A stretch of DNA of 64,000 nucleotides from Clostridia bacterium (GTDB lineage Bacteria; Bacillota; Clostridia; UBA1212; UBA1255), in assembly GCA_045546695.1 (NCBI GenBank), contig JAZQDE010000008.1, positions 27,782 to 91,781 of the forward strand. The letters are read 5' to 3'. The notes beneath the pieces were generated by a model. That model made no database searches, had not been told where the DNA came from, and worked only from the letters and a program-made list of their open reading frames with translations. A program made the translations under genes and the position numbers. Below, piece by piece: positions 576 through 52,845 of this stretch. Each line of letters opens with the position of its first letter. Position 1 is the stretch's first letter.

Positions 576-1732
576 AAAAACTGGTTAGTTTATTTGTTGT
601 TCTGACTTTAATTGCATCTTTTGCAATATCATCAGGTGCTGAAATCAATACAACAAGCTTTTCACAGGCAATATCAGAAATGAGTGTATTGTCATCGCAT
701 GATTTTGAAGCAGAAGACGTTGAGACAGAAGTAGCTGACACAGCTTTTGCAGATGATTGGGATGTTACACTTGGTACAGGTAATGCATTAATTTACGAAT
801 ACAATGGAAGTAAAGCTCTGATGTCATCCGGTAGCGCAATAACAGCAAACGGAACAATTAGCTACGAGCTTTCTGATGTGATTTTTGGTGAAGGTGATGC
901 ATATGCCGTTTCTATTAAGTCTACAATACCGGCAAGTGGCGCAAATTCAGTGGGACATCTCTATCTGAGGGGTTCTGAGATAATGGAACGTGATGGAAAT
1001 CCCATGAATTGGTATGACAATGACAGAAGCGGCGGTTCGTTCCGTGGAGCAAGTGGAATTGGTATCAGATGGCAGGCATCAAATGTAATTGAGGTCTCAA
1101 TAAGATTTTATGATGAAAACTCAAATACTCATGTAAATACTGCTTATGCGAGAATCAAATCTACAGGTTTCCCGTATGGCGAGACTCATACAATATCCGC
1201 TGTGGATGACGGGGAAGGAAACATAGTAATTTTCCTTAATGATGCGAAATATGCAACTATAAAATACAATAACGAGGTAAAATATGAAGATGATGATTTT
1301 GATGTTAATCAGGAAACATATTATAGTAACGTAACTGTATATGACAGTGCTGATGAGCAAGTGACACTTACATATATTGATGCAACCGATAAAAGCAATG
1401 TTAAAGTGGATAGTATTACAACAGCACTTGTTGCTAAAGAGGGTAGAGTTGCTATTGCGAATGCCGGAAGACAAGTGTATTACGATGAGATTACAGTGTA
1501 TGAAAAAGTTGAAACAGAACCCACTCCGACTCCTACTCCCGTACCTACAACAGCTCCTACCGCTACTCCTACTGTAGCACCAACAAGTGCACCGACTCAA
1601 GAGCCGACAACCGCACCGATAGAGCCGGAAGATCCTGAAACAGGTGATGGTATGTATTTCATAATACTGGCACTTGCTGTAGGCGTTATAATTTCAGGCC
1701 TTGTTATATATAATAAAAAAGTTAAGAACTAA
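572..1732 (+). CDS. Secreted, membrane-anchored surface protein: signal peptide, beta-rich ectodomain, Pro/Thr-rich linker and C-terminal TM anchor.
   Basis: N-terminus MKKLVSLFVVLTLIASFAISSGA resembles a signal peptide. The PT-repeat linker TEPTPTPTPVPTTAPTATPTVAPTSAPTQEPTTAP is encoded at about 1510-1620. The C-terminus is hydrophobic (FIILALAVGVIISGLVIY) followed by basic NKKVKN. Confidence 0.6.
   Translation: MKKLVSLFVVLTLIASFAISSGAEINTTSFSQAISEMSVLSSHDFEAEDVETEVADTAFADDWDVTLGTGNALIYEYNGSKALMSSGSAITANGTISYELSDVIFGEGDAYAVSIKSTIPASGANSVGHLYLRGSEIMERDGNPMNWYDNDRSGGSFRGASGIGIRWQASNVIEVSIRFYDENSNTHVNTAYARIKSTGFPYGETHTISAVDDGEGNIVIFLNDAKYATIKYNNEVKYEDDDFDVNQETYYSNVTVYDSADEQVTLTYIDATDKSNVKVDSITTALVAKEGRVAIANAGRQVYYDEITVYEKVETEPTPTPTPVPTTAPTATPTVAPTSAPTQEPTTAPIEPEDPETGDGMYFIILALAVGVIISGLVIYNKKVKN
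1510..1620 (+). repeat. Pro/Thr-rich low-complexity linker-coding repeat inside the surface-protein gene.
   Basis: Repeated cc(g/t)ac(t/a) codons encoding PTPTPTPVPTTAPTATPTVAPTSAPT. Confidence 0.6.
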
Positions 1733-3905: not shown

Positions 3906-4997
3906 TTATTTATTCAATATATGATTTATAAATTTTTTCATTGGACAACCATCTATATCAGGACGCCAGACATCCTGCATTCTTCTGCAACCACCATTAC
4001 ACGCGCTTAAATACCGGCATGCTTTGCATTGATCAGCAAGCTTCGGTTTGTCAGTAATAAATTTTTTAATGCCGCTTGAGCAAAGCGTGTCATCAATTGA
4101 AGTATCTATTACATTTCCTGTGCAATATTCTGGTAAAACATAAAAATCACACGGATAAATGTTGCCATCTGATTCAATAACCAGTTGTGCATTACATTTT
4201 CCAGAGAAAACACAAGGGTCTGATATATTGCCCTGTAGTGCGTTAATTATTGCTGAAAACTCCCTGACTTCAAAAGGAGGACAGGAGTTTTTCCTGAAAT
4301 CATCTATCCAATAATTATAAAAATTCATAAGGAAATCCGCTAAAATATCTCTGTCTATAGTATCATTTTCACCGATGGGCGGCAGACAGGGGATAAGCTG
4401 AACATATTCAACATTAGATCTTTTGTAAAAATTATATAATTTACTTGGACTATTTAATACTGATTTAGAAAGTACAGTCAGGAAATTGACACATATGCCG
4501 GCATCAATCATCCTCCGGTATGCTTTCATAACTAAATGATGTGTAGGTGCACCATCATTAAACACTCTGTTTATATCATGACTGGAAGTATCACCGTCAA
4601 CTGATATACCGATTATACAATTGTGTCTTTTGAAAAGATCAATCCATTTTTCACCATTGATATCGTCGCTGATGCATATTCCGTTTGTCTGAAAAATGTA
4701 TTGTGCGTTAATGTTATGAATCGAAATTGCGTTAAAAAAGTAATTGTAAAATTCTATACCGGCAAGTAAAGGCTCGCCACCCTGAAAAGCAATAGTCACA
4801 ATACCCGAAGGTGATAACTTTGCTTTAATCATTAATATCAACGAATCAACGACAGTTCTTGTCATTATCATGCCGGGTTGCGCACCGCAAGACTCCATTT
4901 CTTTATAGAAACAATATTTACAGGACATCTGACAGAGTCCAGAGGCCGGTTTAACAAGAACTGTAAGTCGGTTTACTTTCAAAAAACAACACTCCAT
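3906..4997 (-). CDS. Radical SAM/SPASM-domain enzyme of the anaerobic sulfatase-maturase (anSME)-like family.
   Basis: KPASGLCQMSCKYCFY carries the CX3CX2C radical-SAM motif in an anSME-like context. The C-terminal SPASM cysteines are CNAQLVIESDGNIYPCDF and CKACRYLSACNGGC. The ORF track extends it to a TTG at 5042, but that codon lies inside the rplS promoter, so the ATG at 4997 is preferred. Neither start has a clear SD. Confidence 0.7.
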   Translation of the reverse strand: MECCFLKVNRLTVLVKPASGLCQMSCKYCFYKEMESCGAQPGMIMTRTVVDSLILMIKAKLSPSGIVTIAFQGGEPLLAGIEFYNYFFNAISIHNINAQYIFQTNGICISDDINGEKWIDLFKRHNCIIGISVDGDTSSHDINRVFNDGAPTHHLVMKAYRRMIDAGICVNFLTVLSKSVLNSPSKLYNFYKRSNVEYVQLIPCLPPIGENDTIDRDILADFLMNFYNYWIDDFRKNSCPPFEVREFSAIINALQGNISDPCVFSGKCNAQLVIESDGNIYPCDFYVLPEYCTGNVIDTSIDDTLCSSGIKKFITDKPKLADQCKACRYLSACNGGCRRMQDVWRPDIDGCPMKKFINHILNK

Positions 4998-18804: not shown

Positions 18805-19239
18805 ATGTATTCAGATAAAGTAATGGACCATTTTTCAAATCCGAGAAATGTCGGTGCTATAGAAGATGCTGACGGAGTAGGCGAGGTCGGCAATGCAAAA
18901 TGTGGCGATATAATGCGTATTTACCTTAAGGTAATCGACGACGTTATCGTTGATGTTAAATTCAAGACTTTCGGTTGTGGTGCAGCAATTGCAACAAGCA
19001 GTATGGCTACAGAAATGATTCTTGGAAAAACAATTGATGAAGCCTTAGAGCTTACAAATAAAGCTGTAGTAGAGGCACTCGACGGACTTCCGCCGGCTAA
19101 AATACATTGCAGTGTTCTTGCTGAAGAAGCTGTAAAGGCTGCTATTATTGATTATAAGAAAAAGAACGGTCTTTACATCGGAGACGAGCTGTCATCAAGC
19201 GAATGTGACGGCTGCTGCAGTTCATGCGGAAAACACTAA
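18805..19239 (+). CDS. nifU: Fe-S cluster assembly scaffold NifU/IscU.
   Basis: DHFSNPRNVG...NAKCGDIMRIYL...FKTFGCGAAIATSS...IHCSVLA carries the three conserved Cys of IscU. Confidence 0.9.
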   Translation: MYSDKVMDHFSNPRNVGAIEDADGVGEVGNAKCGDIMRIYLKVIDDVIVDVKFKTFGCGAAIATSSMATEMILGKTIDEALELTNKAVVEALDGLPPAKIHCSVLAEEAVKAAIIDYKKKNGLYIGDELSSSECDGCCSSCGKH

Positions 19240-19247
19240 AATTTTAT

Positions 19248-19276
19248 TTGACGATTTTTTTCACAGATGATATACT
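19248..19276 (+). promoter_or_regulatory. Sigma-A-type promoter for the riboswitch/ATPase transcript.
   Basis: -35 TTGACG at 19248-19253, a 17-nt spacer, then an extended -10 TGATATACT at 19268-19276. Confidence 0.4.
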
Positions 19277-19282
19277 GCGAAA

Positions 19283-19436
19283 GTAGTCATTTTATGAGGG
19301 AGTAGTAGGCATATAAGTCCACGGCGCCTTATATGTTTCAAGTTCAACATCATGGTACCTTAGTACTTGGCTTGGATTAAATTACCAGACTCATGGATTT
19401 ATGCATTAAGTCATACGTCCATGAGTCTTTTTTATA
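19283..19436 (+). promoter_or_regulatory. Candidate yybP-ykoY (Mn2+-sensing) riboswitch with intrinsic terminator, upstream of the P-type ATPase.
   Basis: The leader contains GAGGGAGUAGUAGGC, resembling the conserved GGGGAGUAG element of yybP-ykoY. An internal 8-bp helix CATATAAG/CTTATATG follows. A terminator hairpin agactcatgga...tccatgagtct plus T-run sits at 19388-19436, just before the ATPase start. The class assignment is by eye only. Confidence 0.45.
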
Positions 19437-19464
19437 AGTAATATTTAAGAAAGGATCCTATGAA

Positions 19465-22119
19465 ATGAAGCATTTTTTAAAGGAAACAGCAGATGTGTTA
19501 AAAGAATTTAACACTACGGAAAACGGATTGACTTCAGAAGAGGCTGCAAAAAGGGAAGAACAGTATGGTAAAAACAAGTTAAGAGAAGCTAAAAAGACTT
19601 CACTTATCAAAAGATTTTTCCAACAGCTTGCAGACCCGATGATCATTATCCTGATTGCTGCTGCAGCTATATCAGCAATTACTGCTACAATTGAAGGCGG
19701 CGAAGGTTATGCAGACGTAATTATTATTATGATCGTTGTTCTTATCAATGCAATCCTCGGCGTTGTACAGGAGAGCAAAGCAGAAGCTGCTATCGAAGCA
19801 CTTCAGCAGATGTCGGCAGCTACCAGCAAGGTTATGAGAAATGGTCATATTGCTATCGTTAAGAGCGAAGATCTTGTTCCGGGCGATATCGTATTATTAG
19901 AAGCCGGAGATGCTGTTCCTGCAGATGGTAGAATTATAGAATCAGCAAGCCTGAAGATAGAAGAAGCTGCTCTTACAGGTGAGAGTGTTCCTGTCAATAA
20001 ATTTGTTGATACTCTTGAAGAAGACGGCTCTGGCAAAGAAGTTCCGCTTGGTGACAGAAAGAATATGATTTATATGGGCAGCACCGTTGTTTATGGCCGC
20101 GGTAAAGCTGTTATCACTGAGATCGGTATGGATACAGAAATGGGTAAGATTGCTGATGCTCTTACTCAGGCTGAAGAAGGCAAGACTCCTTTGCAGATCA
20201 AGCTTGCTCAGTTGAGTAAAGTACTGACTTGGATTGTATTGGGTATCTGCTTATTTATTTTCGCATTCAATATTATTAAAGCCGGCGATTTCCATTTCAA
20301 GCCAATTCTTGAATCATTTATGGTGGCAGTAAGTCTTGCTGTTGCTGCTATTCCCGAAGGACTTGCGACAGTTGTTACAATCGTTCTTTCGATCGGTGTT
20401 ACGAAAATGTCAAAGCGTAATGCCATTATCCGTAAATTGACTGCTGTTGAGACACTTGGTTGTGCGCAGATTATCTGTAGCGATAAGACAGGTACTCTTA
20501 CACAGAACAAGATGACAGTAGTTGATCATTTTGGTGATGACGAATCGCTCCTTGCACGTGCTATGGCTCTTTGTAGTGATGCAGAGATTGAGCCTGAAAA
20601 GAATGAAGCGACAGGCGAGCCTACAGAATGTGCACTTGTAAACTATGCTAATTCTTTATCACTTCCAAAAGACAATCTTAAAGCTGAATATCCAAGAGTA
20701 GCAGAGCTTCCTTTTGACAGCATGAGAAAGATGATGTCCACATATCATTCATTCGACGGCAAAGTTATTCAGTATACAAAGGGTGCTCCTGACGAGATTC
20801 TCAAGAGATGTACATCATATATTGAAAATGGCGTTGTTCATGAAATGACAGAAGACTTCAGAAACAAGATTCTTGCGGCTAACAAAGCAATGGCTGACAA
20901 GGCATTGCGCGTTCTGAGCGCCTCAATGCGTGTTTATAACGCTGTTCCCGAAGAACCTACAACAGAAGCAAATGAATGTGATCTGACATTTATCGGCCTC
21001 ACAGGTATGATAGATCCTATCAGACCTGAAGTTAAAGATGCTATTACAGAATGTAAGGGCGCAGGTATCAGAGCTATTATGATTACAGGCGACCACAGAG
21101 ATACTGCTATTGCAATTGCAAAAGAGCTTGGTATCATCGAAGATGCTTCACAGGCTATCACAGGTGCTGAACTTAATGAGATCAGCGACGAAGAGCTTGA
21201 CAGACGTATTGCTGAGTTCGGCGTGTATGCAAGAGTACAGCCTGAACATAAGACACGTATTGTAAATGCATGGCGTAAAAATGGTTATATCACTGCCATG
21301 ACAGGTGATGGTGTAAACGACGCTCCAAGTATTAAAAATGCCGACATCGGTATCGGAATGGGTATTACAGGTACAGACGTTACAAAGAACGTTGCAGACA
21401 TGGTACTTGCTGATGACAACTTTGCTACAATCGTTGGCGCTGTAGATGAAGGACGTAGAATATACGACAACATCAGAAAAGCAATCCAGTTCCTGCTTGG
21501 CTCAAATATGAGTGAAGTTCTGAGTGTATTCTTTGCAAGCGTGTTTGGTTTTGTTATCTTAAAACCTGTACACCTTCTTTGGATTAACCTTATCACTGAC
21601 TGTTTCCCGGCACTTGCTTTAGGTGTTGAAAAGGGTGAGCCTGATCTCATGCAGAGAAAACCAAGAAATCCTAAAGATGGTATTTTCGCAGGTGGTCTCG
21701 GCGTTGACGTAGTATACCAGGGTCTTTTAGTATCAGTTCTTACCATACTTGCGTTTATGATCGGACATTTCTTTGAAAATGGCGCATTTACTTTAATGAA
21801 CATTTCTGAAAGCACACACGGTATGACAATGGCATTCCTTACAATGAGTATGGCAGAAGTATTCCACAGCTTTAACATGAGAAGCCAGCGTGGCAGTATC
21901 TTTAAGCTCAAGTCACAAAATAAGATTCTCTGGGCTGCCGGTATCCTCAGCTTACTTCTTACAACAGCCGTTATCGAGATTCCGTTCCTTGCAAACGCTT
22001 TCGGTTTTGCCGTTATCGGTTGGGAAGAGTATGCAATCGCTTTAGGTCTTGCAATTGCTGTAATTCCGATTGTTGAGATTGTTAAATTCTTCCAGAGACT
22101 TGTTAAAAAGAACAAATAA
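19465..22119 (+). CDS. P-type cation-transporting ATPase, type IIA (Ca2+/Mn2+).
   Basis: Phosphorylation motif CSDKTGTLTQN, hinge MTGDGVNDAPSIKNADIGIGMG, and 10 predicted TM helices. Length is 884 aa. Confidence 0.9.
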   Translation: MKHFLKETADVLKEFNTTENGLTSEEAAKREEQYGKNKLREAKKTSLIKRFFQQLADPMIIILIAAAAISAITATIEGGEGYADVIIIMIVVLINAILGVVQESKAEAAIEALQQMSAATSKVMRNGHIAIVKSEDLVPGDIVLLEAGDAVPADGRIIESASLKIEEAALTGESVPVNKFVDTLEEDGSGKEVPLGDRKNMIYMGSTVVYGRGKAVITEIGMDTEMGKIADALTQAEEGKTPLQIKLAQLSKVLTWIVLGICLFIFAFNIIKAGDFHFKPILESFMVAVSLAVAAIPEGLATVVTIVLSIGVTKMSKRNAIIRKLTAVETLGCAQIICSDKTGTLTQNKMTVVDHFGDDESLLARAMALCSDAEIEPEKNEATGEPTECALVNYANSLSLPKDNLKAEYPRVAELPFDSMRKMMSTYHSFDGKVIQYTKGAPDEILKRCTSYIENGVVHEMTEDFRNKILAANKAMADKALRVLSASMRVYNAVPEEPTTEANECDLTFIGLTGMIDPIRPEVKDAITECKGAGIRAIMITGDHRDTAIAIAKELGIIEDASQAITGAELNEISDEELDRRIAEFGVYARVQPEHKTRIVNAWRKNGYITAMTGDGVNDAPSIKNADIGIGMGITGTDVTKNVADMVLADDNFATIVGAVDEGRRIYDNIRKAIQFLLGSNMSEVLSVFFASVFGFVILKPVHLLWINLITDCFPALALGVEKGEPDLMQRKPRNPKDGIFAGGLGVDVVYQGLLVSVLTILAFMIGHFFENGAFTLMNISESTHGMTMAFLTMSMAEVFHSFNMRSQRGSIFKLKSQNKILWAAGILSLLLTTAVIEIPFLANAFGFAVIGWEEYAIALGLAIAVIPIVEIVKFFQRLVKKNK

Positions 22120-52519: not shown

Positions 52520-52845
52520 CACCTCTTGTTAAAAAAAGTCTTTGTCCTTAAAACCATAGGACAAAGACTGATAATCTCTGCGGTGCCACCTAAATTGACG
52601 TTTGTCACGCCCACTCATTAGTATACAAACATATACTGTCCAACTTACGTATGGAAACACGTCGACCATTACTCGCTTTAATGCTTTCCTGTCGCCCTCA
52701 TAAGTCCATTCACAGATATAATGCATATAACCTCACACCGGCCGGCTACTCTCTGAAATGATAAACATCTGCTACTCTTCTTAATCACAGGTTTTCAATA
52801 TTCGATTTTTTTAATTAAACAACATTAAATATTCGTTGTCAAGCA
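52520..52845 (-). promoter_or_regulatory. T-box riboswitch leader (probably tRNA-Trp-responsive) with terminator, upstream of trpB.
   Basis: Minus-strand sequence AATTTAGGTGGCACCGCAGAG (reverse complement of 52566-52586) matches the T-box consensus AATTAGGGTGGTACCGCG. The terminator hairpin agtctttgtcc...ggacaaagact plus U-run is at 52520-52559. A candidate promoter (TTGACA -35 and TTTAAT -10 on the minus strand) is at about 52842-52814. Confidence 0.65.

Follow-up and report, generated by a model that had tools for sequence, protein, structure and literature searches.

A three-way-junction leader of the yybP-ykoY (Mn2+) riboswitch class probably controls a type II P-type ATPase gene in an uncultured clostridial lineage

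What controls the expression of a predicted metal pump in a Clostridia bacterium known from contig JAZQDE010000008.1? The stretch of this contig that was analysed, referred to here as the window, is 64,000 nucleotides (nt) long, and within it a gene for a type II P-type ATPase is separated from an upstream nifU-like gene by a spacer of 225 nt that holds a promoter match, a structured leader and a terminator. An initial annotation had read this spacer as a Mn2+ (yybP-ykoY) riboswitch with terminator in front of a P-type ATPase gene, a proposal that is borne out by the class features and the covariation described below, while the ligand is one that we infer. In all likelihood the leader belongs to the yybP-ykoY (Mn2+) class of riboswitches, has the three-way-junction form and acts at the level of transcription as an ON switch. 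Mn2+ riboswitches that precede P-type ATPase genes are already known from Clostridioides difficile, Lactococcus lactis and Streptococcus; both the class and its mechanism are therefore familiar, and the window copy is an ordinary member that holds little biological surprise.

The three-way-junction form is described for the mgtA (SN44) leader of Streptococcus pneumoniae, which is a yybP-ykoY riboswitch (Martin et al. 2019, PMC6649816). In this RNA an invariant UNAAA element, with U or G as its N, takes the place of helix P4, L1 has on its 3' side an invariant AGA that follows a variable base, and L3 contains an invariant C-A. A terminator directly follows the aptamer, and the downstream gene encodes a PII-type ATPase (PMC6649816). 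The window leader likewise harbors GGGAGUAG on the 5' side of L1 (19298-19305, with GGGAGUA invariant in 44 of 44 aligned sequences), the AGA, the CAACA, a terminator and a type II P-type ATPase gene downstream. All of the positions validated by mutation in mgtA (G16/G17, A18, C49/A50 and A102-A104) are identical in the window, the correspondence having been drawn through the published numbering (PMC6649816). In the L. lactis RNA the adenine N7 of the equivalent C40-A41 contacts Mn2+ (PMC6649816). The window differs from mgtA in its host, which belongs to an uncultured gut clostridial lineage rather than to Streptococcus, in its longer P2 (8 base pairs and a 10-nt loop), in having C and not G before the AGA, and in an extra U (19344) just before CAACA, which is also found in six of the homologous loci (L001-L003, L007, L009 and L011; L numbers identify the loci compared).

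With the canonical four-way-junction members of the class (RF00080; L. lactis yoaB, Escherichia coli mntP/alx, Bacillus subtilis yybP/ykoY) the window has in common the L1/L3 consensus of GGGAGUAG, GUCAACAU and UGGC, the P1/P2/P3 topology, the association with Mn exporters that include MntP and P-type ATPases, and an ON logic in which P1.1 is set against a terminator. The P4 helix of the canonical form is absent in the window, and the ATPase-linked RNAs read CAACAUCAU in L3 where the canonical ones read CAACAUACU. The structured leader that had been proposed from the sequence is confirmed in that GAGGGAGUAGUAGGC is found at 19297-19311 and a five-helix aptamer spans 19291-19397; the 8-base-pair internal helix reported alongside it is P2, formed by CAUAUAAG and CUUAUAUG with all pairs standard.

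The main evidence for this fold comes from comparison of 80 ATPase-orthologue loci, picked via the ATPase, from Clostridia both cultured and uncultured (67-88% identity at the protein level). Of 81 upstream regions, 70 contain the GGGAGUA block, placed about equally far from the start codon each time, and the common layout can be written as cAUGA-GGGAGUAGUU-(variable hairpin)-CAAGUCAACAU-(variable hairpin)-UGGCUUG-aU(U/G)AAA-nnnn-nAGACUCAUG-(terminator). MAFFT was used to align 44 of these sequences, and no variation is seen among them in GGGAGUA, CAACA, the middle A of UNAAA or AG-C-U. The element U(U/G)AAA is conserved throughout the family, and in the AGA the first A and the G are invariant, with the last A at least 98% conserved.

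A structure of five helices (P1.1, P1.2, P2, P3.2 and P3.1; 27 pairs) was written by hand on this unfitted 44-sequence alignment. Standard pairs fill 89.3% of its cells, compared with 30-43% when the 3' partners are slid by 1-3 columns, and compensatory changes are seen in 22 of the 27 pairs, compared with 10-13 in the slid registers. The covariation score is 0.459 against at most 0.148 for the slid versions, and none of 500 shuffles reaches the observed value. All five helices vary on both sides. Six modelled pairs of P1.1 covary, with, for example, G-C becoming A-U in 6/44 and 12/68 sequences; P1.2 displays compensatory changes in all four pairs, with 92-96% of cells paired; the P2 pairs covary while the hairpin differs in length and sequence between homologues; and in the P3 arm compensatory changes affect every one of the 5 pairs in P3.1 and 6 or 7 of the 7 in P3.2.

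The covariance model R1, derived from the 44-sequence alignment, finds a single copy in the window and copies in 66 of the 80 ATPase loci, around 23 of which lie outside the training set. When 68 sequences are aligned by the model, the paired cells amount to 92.5% and compensatory changes occur in 25 of 27 pairs; being fitted to the model, this alignment favours the structure, and the 44-sequence figure is the independent one. A second model, R2, was rebuilt from a set that excluded the window and its four closest relatives (L001-L004). In the 64 kb its sole match is the window copy, at 75.0 bits (E 6.4e-18), and all modelled pairs in it are standard. Ten ATPase loci have neither an aptamer detectable by R2 nor an Rfam riboswitch (L015, L027, L038, L050, L051, L055, L059, L077, L078 and L079), and the upstream sequence of L027 is 73 nt only. 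The features of the locus are collected in Table 1.

Table 1. Features of the leader and its neighbourhood, in window coordinates, with the corresponding positions of the S. pneumoniae mgtA RNA
Feature	Position	Strand	Description	S. pneumoniae counterpart
yybP-ykoY-class aptamer, three-way-junction form	19291..19397	+	~107 nt, from P1.1 5' strand to P1.1 3' strand	
P1.1 5' strand (UUUAUGAG)	19291..19298	+	pairs with 19390-19397 (CUCAUGGA); 8 standard pairs, two of them G-U	
L1 5' strand GGAGUA	19299..19304	+	invariant in 44/44 aligned sequences	G16-G17-A18 (metal-site and A-minor) = G19299-G19300-A19301
P1.2 5' strand GUAG	19305..19308	+	pairs with 19382-19385 (UUAC)	
P2 hairpin	19310..19335	+	8-base-pair stem CAUAUAAG (19310-19317) / CUUAUAUG (19328-19335), 10-nt loop; all pairs standard	
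P3 arm	19337..19376	+	P3.2 19337-19343/19370-19376; L3 internal loop; P3.1 hairpin 19354-19358/19363-19367; all pairs standard	
L3 core CAACA	19345..19349	+	invariant in 44-sequence alignment	C46 to A50; C49-A50 = C19348-A19349 (= L. lactis C40-A41)
Junction strand UUAAA	19377..19381	+	UNAAA element in place of helix P4; directly between P3.2 and P1.2	UNAAA
L1 3' strand C-AGA	19386..19389	+	variable nucleotide and invariant AGA	101-104; A102-G103-A104 = A19387-G19388-A19389
Intrinsic terminator	19387..19433	+	11-base-pair stem AGACUCAUGGA (19387-19397) / UCCAUGAGUCU (19418-19428); U-run to 19433	
Sigma-A/sigma-70-type promoter match	19248..19276	+	-35 TTGACG 19248-19253; 17-nt spacer; TATACT 19271-19276	
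Putative ribosome-binding site AAAGGA	19450..19455	+	9 nt before start codon; predicted from sequence	
Type II P-type ATPase gene, 884 aa	19465..22119	+	open reading frame and domains	
nifU-like gene	18805-19239		PF01592	

Several observations weigh against this reading of the leader. Under Rfam release 15, RF00080 (gathering score 45 bits) gives no match in the whole window at gathering and none at E<=10 on 19200-19520 or on 19280-19440, the latter being the interval over which the initial annotation had suggested this very search as a check. When 17 three-way-junction leaders (the window and 16 loci) are compared with RF00080, none reaches 45 bits and three appear, at the sub-threshold scores of 22.9 (L005), 31.1 (L066) and 14.7 (L010) bits. 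For the aptamer region by itself, the folding energy is no more favourable than that of shuffled sequence (z = 0.10), so that energy by itself is no evidence for the structure. Considered in isolation, the Rfam and folding results would point to a mistaken interpretation. RNAalifold, applied to the MAFFT alignment, recovers only P1.2 together with an uninformative alternative register formed by invariant bases, GAGU/ACUC, because the variable hairpins are too poorly aligned, and it is for this reason that the hand-specified structure was tested by slide and shuffle controls. Finally, the putative promoter at 19248-19276 is a consensus match only.

The failure of RF00080 can be traced through the alignment of L005 to this model, which is confident over GGGGAGUAG, P2, and P3 with GUCAACAUAC...UGGC. 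The last RF00080 helix, P4, has no counterpart in L005 and is forced onto the terminator, so the score deficit is attributed to the missing P4. The RF00080 consensus includes a long P4 region for which these RNAs have no equivalent, and the home-made model gives 40-99 bits on the same leaders that were compared with RF00080. As the published class definition allows P4 to be a single strand, the low Rfam score is treated as a limitation of the model. No other leader class gives a better match, for none matches 19280-19440 at all, and the Rfam matches at the leader at E<=10 are confined to small nucleolar RNA and microRNA models that fit hairpins, with no riboswitch among them. T-box, M-box, NiCo and Na+/Li+ riboswitch leaders were considered and rejected, as none scored on the window copy; the only match of this kind is to the Na+ riboswitch on L005, at 10.4 bits, which is noise.

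The features by which the class is recognized are found in the window. They comprise the conserved GGGGAGUAG L1 5' strand, including the G-G-A nucleotides, the 3' L1 strand with its AGA, the L3 C-A (a metal contact by correspondence only) and a covarying five-helix topology. To these are added the accepted three-way variant, in which UNAAA stands for P4, an expression platform that sets P1.1 against a terminator, and a link to genes for Mn homeostasis or efflux, a category that takes in MntP, TerC and P-type ATPases and is represented in the window by the P-type ATPase gene. On these sequence features the element is assigned to the yybP-ykoY class in its three-way-junction form despite its Rfam score, and the comparative evidence is judged to outweigh the RF00080 failure.

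The expression platform is built around a shared strand. The 5' arm of the terminator (19387-19397) consists of the AGA and the 3' strand of P1.1, so that the same nucleotides can close the aptamer or form the terminator, and the same arrangement is found in 66 of 68 homologous leaders, in which the A of AGAC and the beginning of a hairpin with its U-run lie 0-5 nt apart (mostly 0-1). The strong terminator that had been described from the sequence is present, with its 11-base-pair stem and a six-T run (19428-19433), the first T of which doubles as the last stem base pair; the hairpin has an energy of -21.2 kcal/mol, and its apical part comprises 20 nt with a small inner stem. A simple terminator scan missed this hairpin because its loop limit was 8 nt, whereas the loop here is 20 nt. 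The distance from terminator to start codon, which had been given as 29 nt, needs correction, since 31 nt separate the end of the U-run from the ATG at 19465. For 19288-19433, the consensus aptamer fold has an energy of -18.6 kcal/mol, while structures in which P2 and P3 are kept together with the terminator have -26.7 and -28.1 kcal/mol, and the unconstrained minimum is -41.5 kcal/mol with the terminator formed. As the terminator folds are more stable than the aptamer fold, termination is taken to be the default state.

The promoter proposed initially is present in the form of TTGACG and TATACT upstream of the leader, with 10 of 12 consensus positions matched and an extended -10 element, TGaTATACT (19268-19276, TG at 19268-19269). 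The shuffled region yields a mean of 2.6 such sites; in many orthologous loci TTGACA...TATAAT occurs at an equal distance 5' of the aptamer. The ribosome-binding site lies outside the modelled structures and is not sequestered, so control would be transcriptional, and homologues carry GAAAGGA/GGAGG at the same position. A mini open reading frame of two codons, AUG AAA UGA (19460-19468), overlaps the ATPase start (AUGAAAUGAAG; ATPase AUG at 19465), and is probably incidental.

Metal binding by the window leader, and the direction of its regulation in vivo, are inferred from the anatomy of the leader and from the Streptococcus homologue, and the ON mechanism can be pictured as follows. Transcription would begin near 19283, driven by the promoter match, and in the nascent RNA P1.1, L1 and P1.2 would be stacked under P2, with the P3 arm bearing L3 and UUAAA standing for P4. 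A metal ion lodged between the GGA... and AGA of L1 and the C-A within CAACA in L3 would dock the two legs and keep P1.1 closed. The closed P1.1 would hide 19387-19397, thereby blocking the terminator and allowing RNA polymerase to read into the ATPase gene. When metal is absent, the 11-base-pair terminator, favoured by ~8-10 kcal/mol, would take the AGA and the P1.1 3' strand, and transcription would end at the U-run, 19428-19433.

It might be supposed instead that the hairpin at 19387-19433 does no more than terminate the nifS-nifU operon, that the sequence preceding it is an unstructured 3' untranslated region, and that the likeness to GGGGAGUAG arose by chance. No other terminator occurs between the nifU stop codon (19239) and the hairpin, and the z of the aptamer region and the lack of an RF00080 match also speak for such a reading. 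The covarying leader, however, precedes the ATPase in 66 loci, and upstream nifU is missing from every one of them; nifU lies within 1.5 kb upstream of the ATPase in 0 of the 80 loci, so the leader travels with the ATPase. The leader also precedes unrelated transporter genes in metagenomes, and the interval from nifU to the leader contains a promoter match. The hairpin as a mere nifU operon terminator is therefore rejected, the leader never being found with nifU in 80 loci, and the probability left to it is vanishingly small. The hairpin may also stop read-through transcripts from nifU: the stretch from the nifU stop codon to the promoter of the riboswitch (19248) holds no terminator, so that read-through from nifS-nifU would enter the riboswitch and meet its terminator. 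Such a second function would leave the aptamer unexplained.

A terminated leader can also be viewed as a product in its own right, in which case the leader would be mainly a stand-alone small RNA (sRNA) of ~150 nt (~19283-19433), similar to SSRC10, that acts in trans, with its position before the ATPase gene being incidental. SSRC10 is an sRNA of Streptococcus pyogenes encoded just upstream of a putative calcium-transporter gene (PMC3675131). Rfam files this Streptococcus counterpart as an sRNA gene, RF02617, a discrete terminated transcript is seen on Northern blots in S. pyogenes (PMC3675131), and a strong terminator should cause a short transcript to accumulate. Yet a riboswitch in its OFF state is expected to yield just such a terminated leader. 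Moreover, the RNA invariably shares the orientation of a transporter gene that it directly precedes (by 25-90 nt in most loci), there is no room for a separate promoter between the terminator and that gene, the overlap of terminator and P1.1 in 66/68 leaders is a hallmark of a cis-acting switch, and the S. pneumoniae counterpart has been shown to act in cis (PMC6649816). A purely trans-acting sRNA is unlikely, and a role mainly as such for the window leader is very improbable, though the leader may have a secondary role in trans.

SSRC10 itself is like the window family in its GGGAG start, three stems, UgAAA, gaGaC and terminator, and differs in being typed by Rfam as an sRNA gene and not as a riboswitch. 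RF02617 (gathering score 56 bits) matches L074 at 1515-1631 (42.6 bits), L061 at 2838-2971 (28.9 bits) and L042 at 2842-2971 (25 bits); no tested locus reaches 56 bits, and the window copy gives no match. SSRC10 is probably the terminated leader of a three-way-junction Mn riboswitch rather than an independent sRNA.

The nature of the ligand was approached through the genes that this RNA form precedes. In a gene-unbiased scan, metagenome contigs were searched with an RNA-only three-way pattern, and R2 confirmed 56 of 80 matches; the pattern forced GGGAGTA, CAACA, KAAA and AGAC, and the invariance of these motifs in the metagenome set thus carries no weight. Downstream genes were counted among 54 matches with scorable downstream DNA, the rest being too short or unassigned. 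The gene encodes an MntP manganese efflux pump (PF02659) at ~23 loci, a P-type ATPase homologue at 14, OAD_beta at 3, a member of the Na_Ca_ex family at 2, and CitMHS, an ABC ATPase and Band_7 at 1 locus each. As the same RNA form precedes MntP genes, the three-way form is not specific to the pump.

In S. pneumoniae, half-maximal read-through occurs at 0.23 mM Mn2+ compared with 1.1 mM Ca2+, and the leader is a Mn-specific ON switch in vivo (PMC6649816). The physiological ligand of the window riboswitch is most likely Mn2+, because the form precedes MntP exporters and because mgtA is Mn-specific in vivo.

Three further points tell against Mn2+ as the ligand, and they underlie an alternative that retains the same architecture and ON mechanism. 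Here the ATPase-linked subgroup would sense Ca2+, or Ca2+ and Mn2+ jointly, and would report the calcium load to a pump resembling LMCA1. The S. pneumoniae aptamer binds Ca2+ tighter than Mn2+ in vitro, and its signatures in selective 2'-hydroxyl acylation analysed by primer extension (SHAPE) and in X-ray scattering at small angles (SAXS) are alike with either metal (PMC6649816). Among solved structures, the pump comes nearest to a Ca2+-ATPase of Listeria, LMCA1 (708 bits). Thirdly, there is a systematic difference in L3 between ATPase-linked and MntP-linked aptamers, at a position 2-3 nt 3' of the metal contacts. Two positions after CAACA an A (CAACAUACU) is found in 20 of 23 MntP-linked aptamers, where A-C or A-A follows CAACA-N (alignment columns 95-96), whereas a C (CAACAUCAU) is found in most ATPase-linked aptamers and in most of those before Na_Ca_ex, OAD_beta, ABC, CitMHS and Band_7 genes, the window copy (19351-19352) being among the ATPase-linked ones. 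The base before the AGA is G in 95% of MntP-linked aptamers and a mixture of G, C and A in ATPase-linked ones. The alternative draws, in addition, on the two three-way aptamers that precede Na_Ca_ex family genes.

Set against this is the activation of read-through in S. pneumoniae by Mn2+ at one-fifth of the concentration of Ca2+, far more strongly and with specificity for Mn in vivo. The known metal-contacting nucleotides are all unchanged in the window, the three-way form also controls MntP Mn exporters, and pumps of the PMR1/SPCA type, the best NCBIfam match of the ATPase, carry both Mn2+ and Ca2+. The L3 difference may simply reflect lineage. Sensing of Ca2+, alone or with Mn2+, is accordingly considered improbable for the ATPase-linked subgroup, though less so than the two readings discussed above. 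A little less probable still is the more specific proposal that the ATPase-linked and other non-MntP-linked three-way aptamers constitute a distinct subclass, with C in place of A in L3 and with a selectivity shifted to Ca2+ or to joint Ca2+/Mn2+ sensing. If true, the L3-marked subclass would be a natural calcium-responsive riboswitch.

With Mn2+ retained as the most likely ligand, the pump itself can be considered. It contains the domains Cation_ATPase_N, E1-E2_ATPase, Cation_ATPase, Hydrolase (HAD) and Cation_ATPase_C (E 1e-18 to 1e-55). Among NCBIfam models it scores 663.7 bits with the PMR1-type (IIA2) model (cutoff 798.3), 639.8 with the SERCA-type (cutoff 703.4) and 504.5 with the PMCA-type (cutoff 507.05). 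As none of these equivalog cutoffs is reached, the subtype can be given as nearest to IIA and no more. The best matches among solved structures are LMCA1 (6zhf, full length), followed by SPCA1 and then SERCA, which places the pump closest to Listeria monocytogenes LMCA1 (lmo0841), SPCA/PMR1 and SERCA (type IIA). The earlier description of the pump as PMCA-like should accordingly be abandoned, the PMR1- and SERCA-type models scoring higher and the closest structure being LMCA1. Pumps of the PMR1/SPCA type carry Mn2+ as well as Ca2+, and a role in Mn2+/Ca2+ efflux fits for this reason; of the proposal of a Ca/Mn P-type ATPase engaged in efflux, the type II ATPase gene is established and the Mn2+/Ca2+ substrate is a prediction. 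The pump most likely exports Mn2+ and/or Ca2+.

A number of other arrangements were noted among the loci. Three aptamers precede OAD_beta, the beta subunit of a Na+-transporting decarboxylase, in L081 at 1572-1683 (-), L127 at 1192-1315 (+) and L128 at 4443-4565 (+). Aptamers also precede further genes that are not usually linked to Mn, namely the two Na_Ca_ex genes (L146 and L157), the CitMHS transporter (L130), the ABC ATPase (L101) and the Band_7/SPFH gene (L092); together with the OAD_beta ones, these aptamers score 48-86 bits. In L037, two full three-way-junction aptamers, at 2575-2688 (58.6 bits) and 2768-2903 (56.1 bits), lie before one ATPase gene, each with its own terminator-like hairpin 3' of it, which suggests a tandem riboswitch arrangement.

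Four ATPase-orthologue loci (L014 2689-2803, L016 2832-2946, L076 2834-2947 and L042 2837-2948) have a four-hairpin version of the leader (GGGGAGUAGC..., with an extra hairpin before AGCAAGAC). These look like the canonical four-way junction and score 17-22 bits with the three-way model; RF00080 at E<=10 does not report L014 or L042. Divergent riboswitches of other classes lie just upstream of the Mn-riboswitch leader in two loci, a lysine riboswitch in L036 (2458-2627 (-), 105.4 bits) and a c-di-GMP-I riboswitch in L031 (2652-2737 (-), 50.1 bits). Elsewhere in the window, a full-length T-box leader (RF00230) at 52554-52797 (-), with 112.8 bits and an E of 3.9e-24, is the sole Rfam match at gathering level in the 64 kb.

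For the family as a whole, RF00080 appears to be blind to the entire group of three-way-junction Mn riboswitches in gut Clostridia. The three-way form is common, preceding 66 of the 80 ATPase orthologues as well as many metagenome MntP genes, and the addition of three-way-junction sequences to the RF00080 seed would recover the leaders that are missed. The window adds one riboswitch that automated annotation would miss, and the pump that it precedes is better annotated as a metal-induced Mn2+/Ca2+ exporter than as a generic calcium ATPase.

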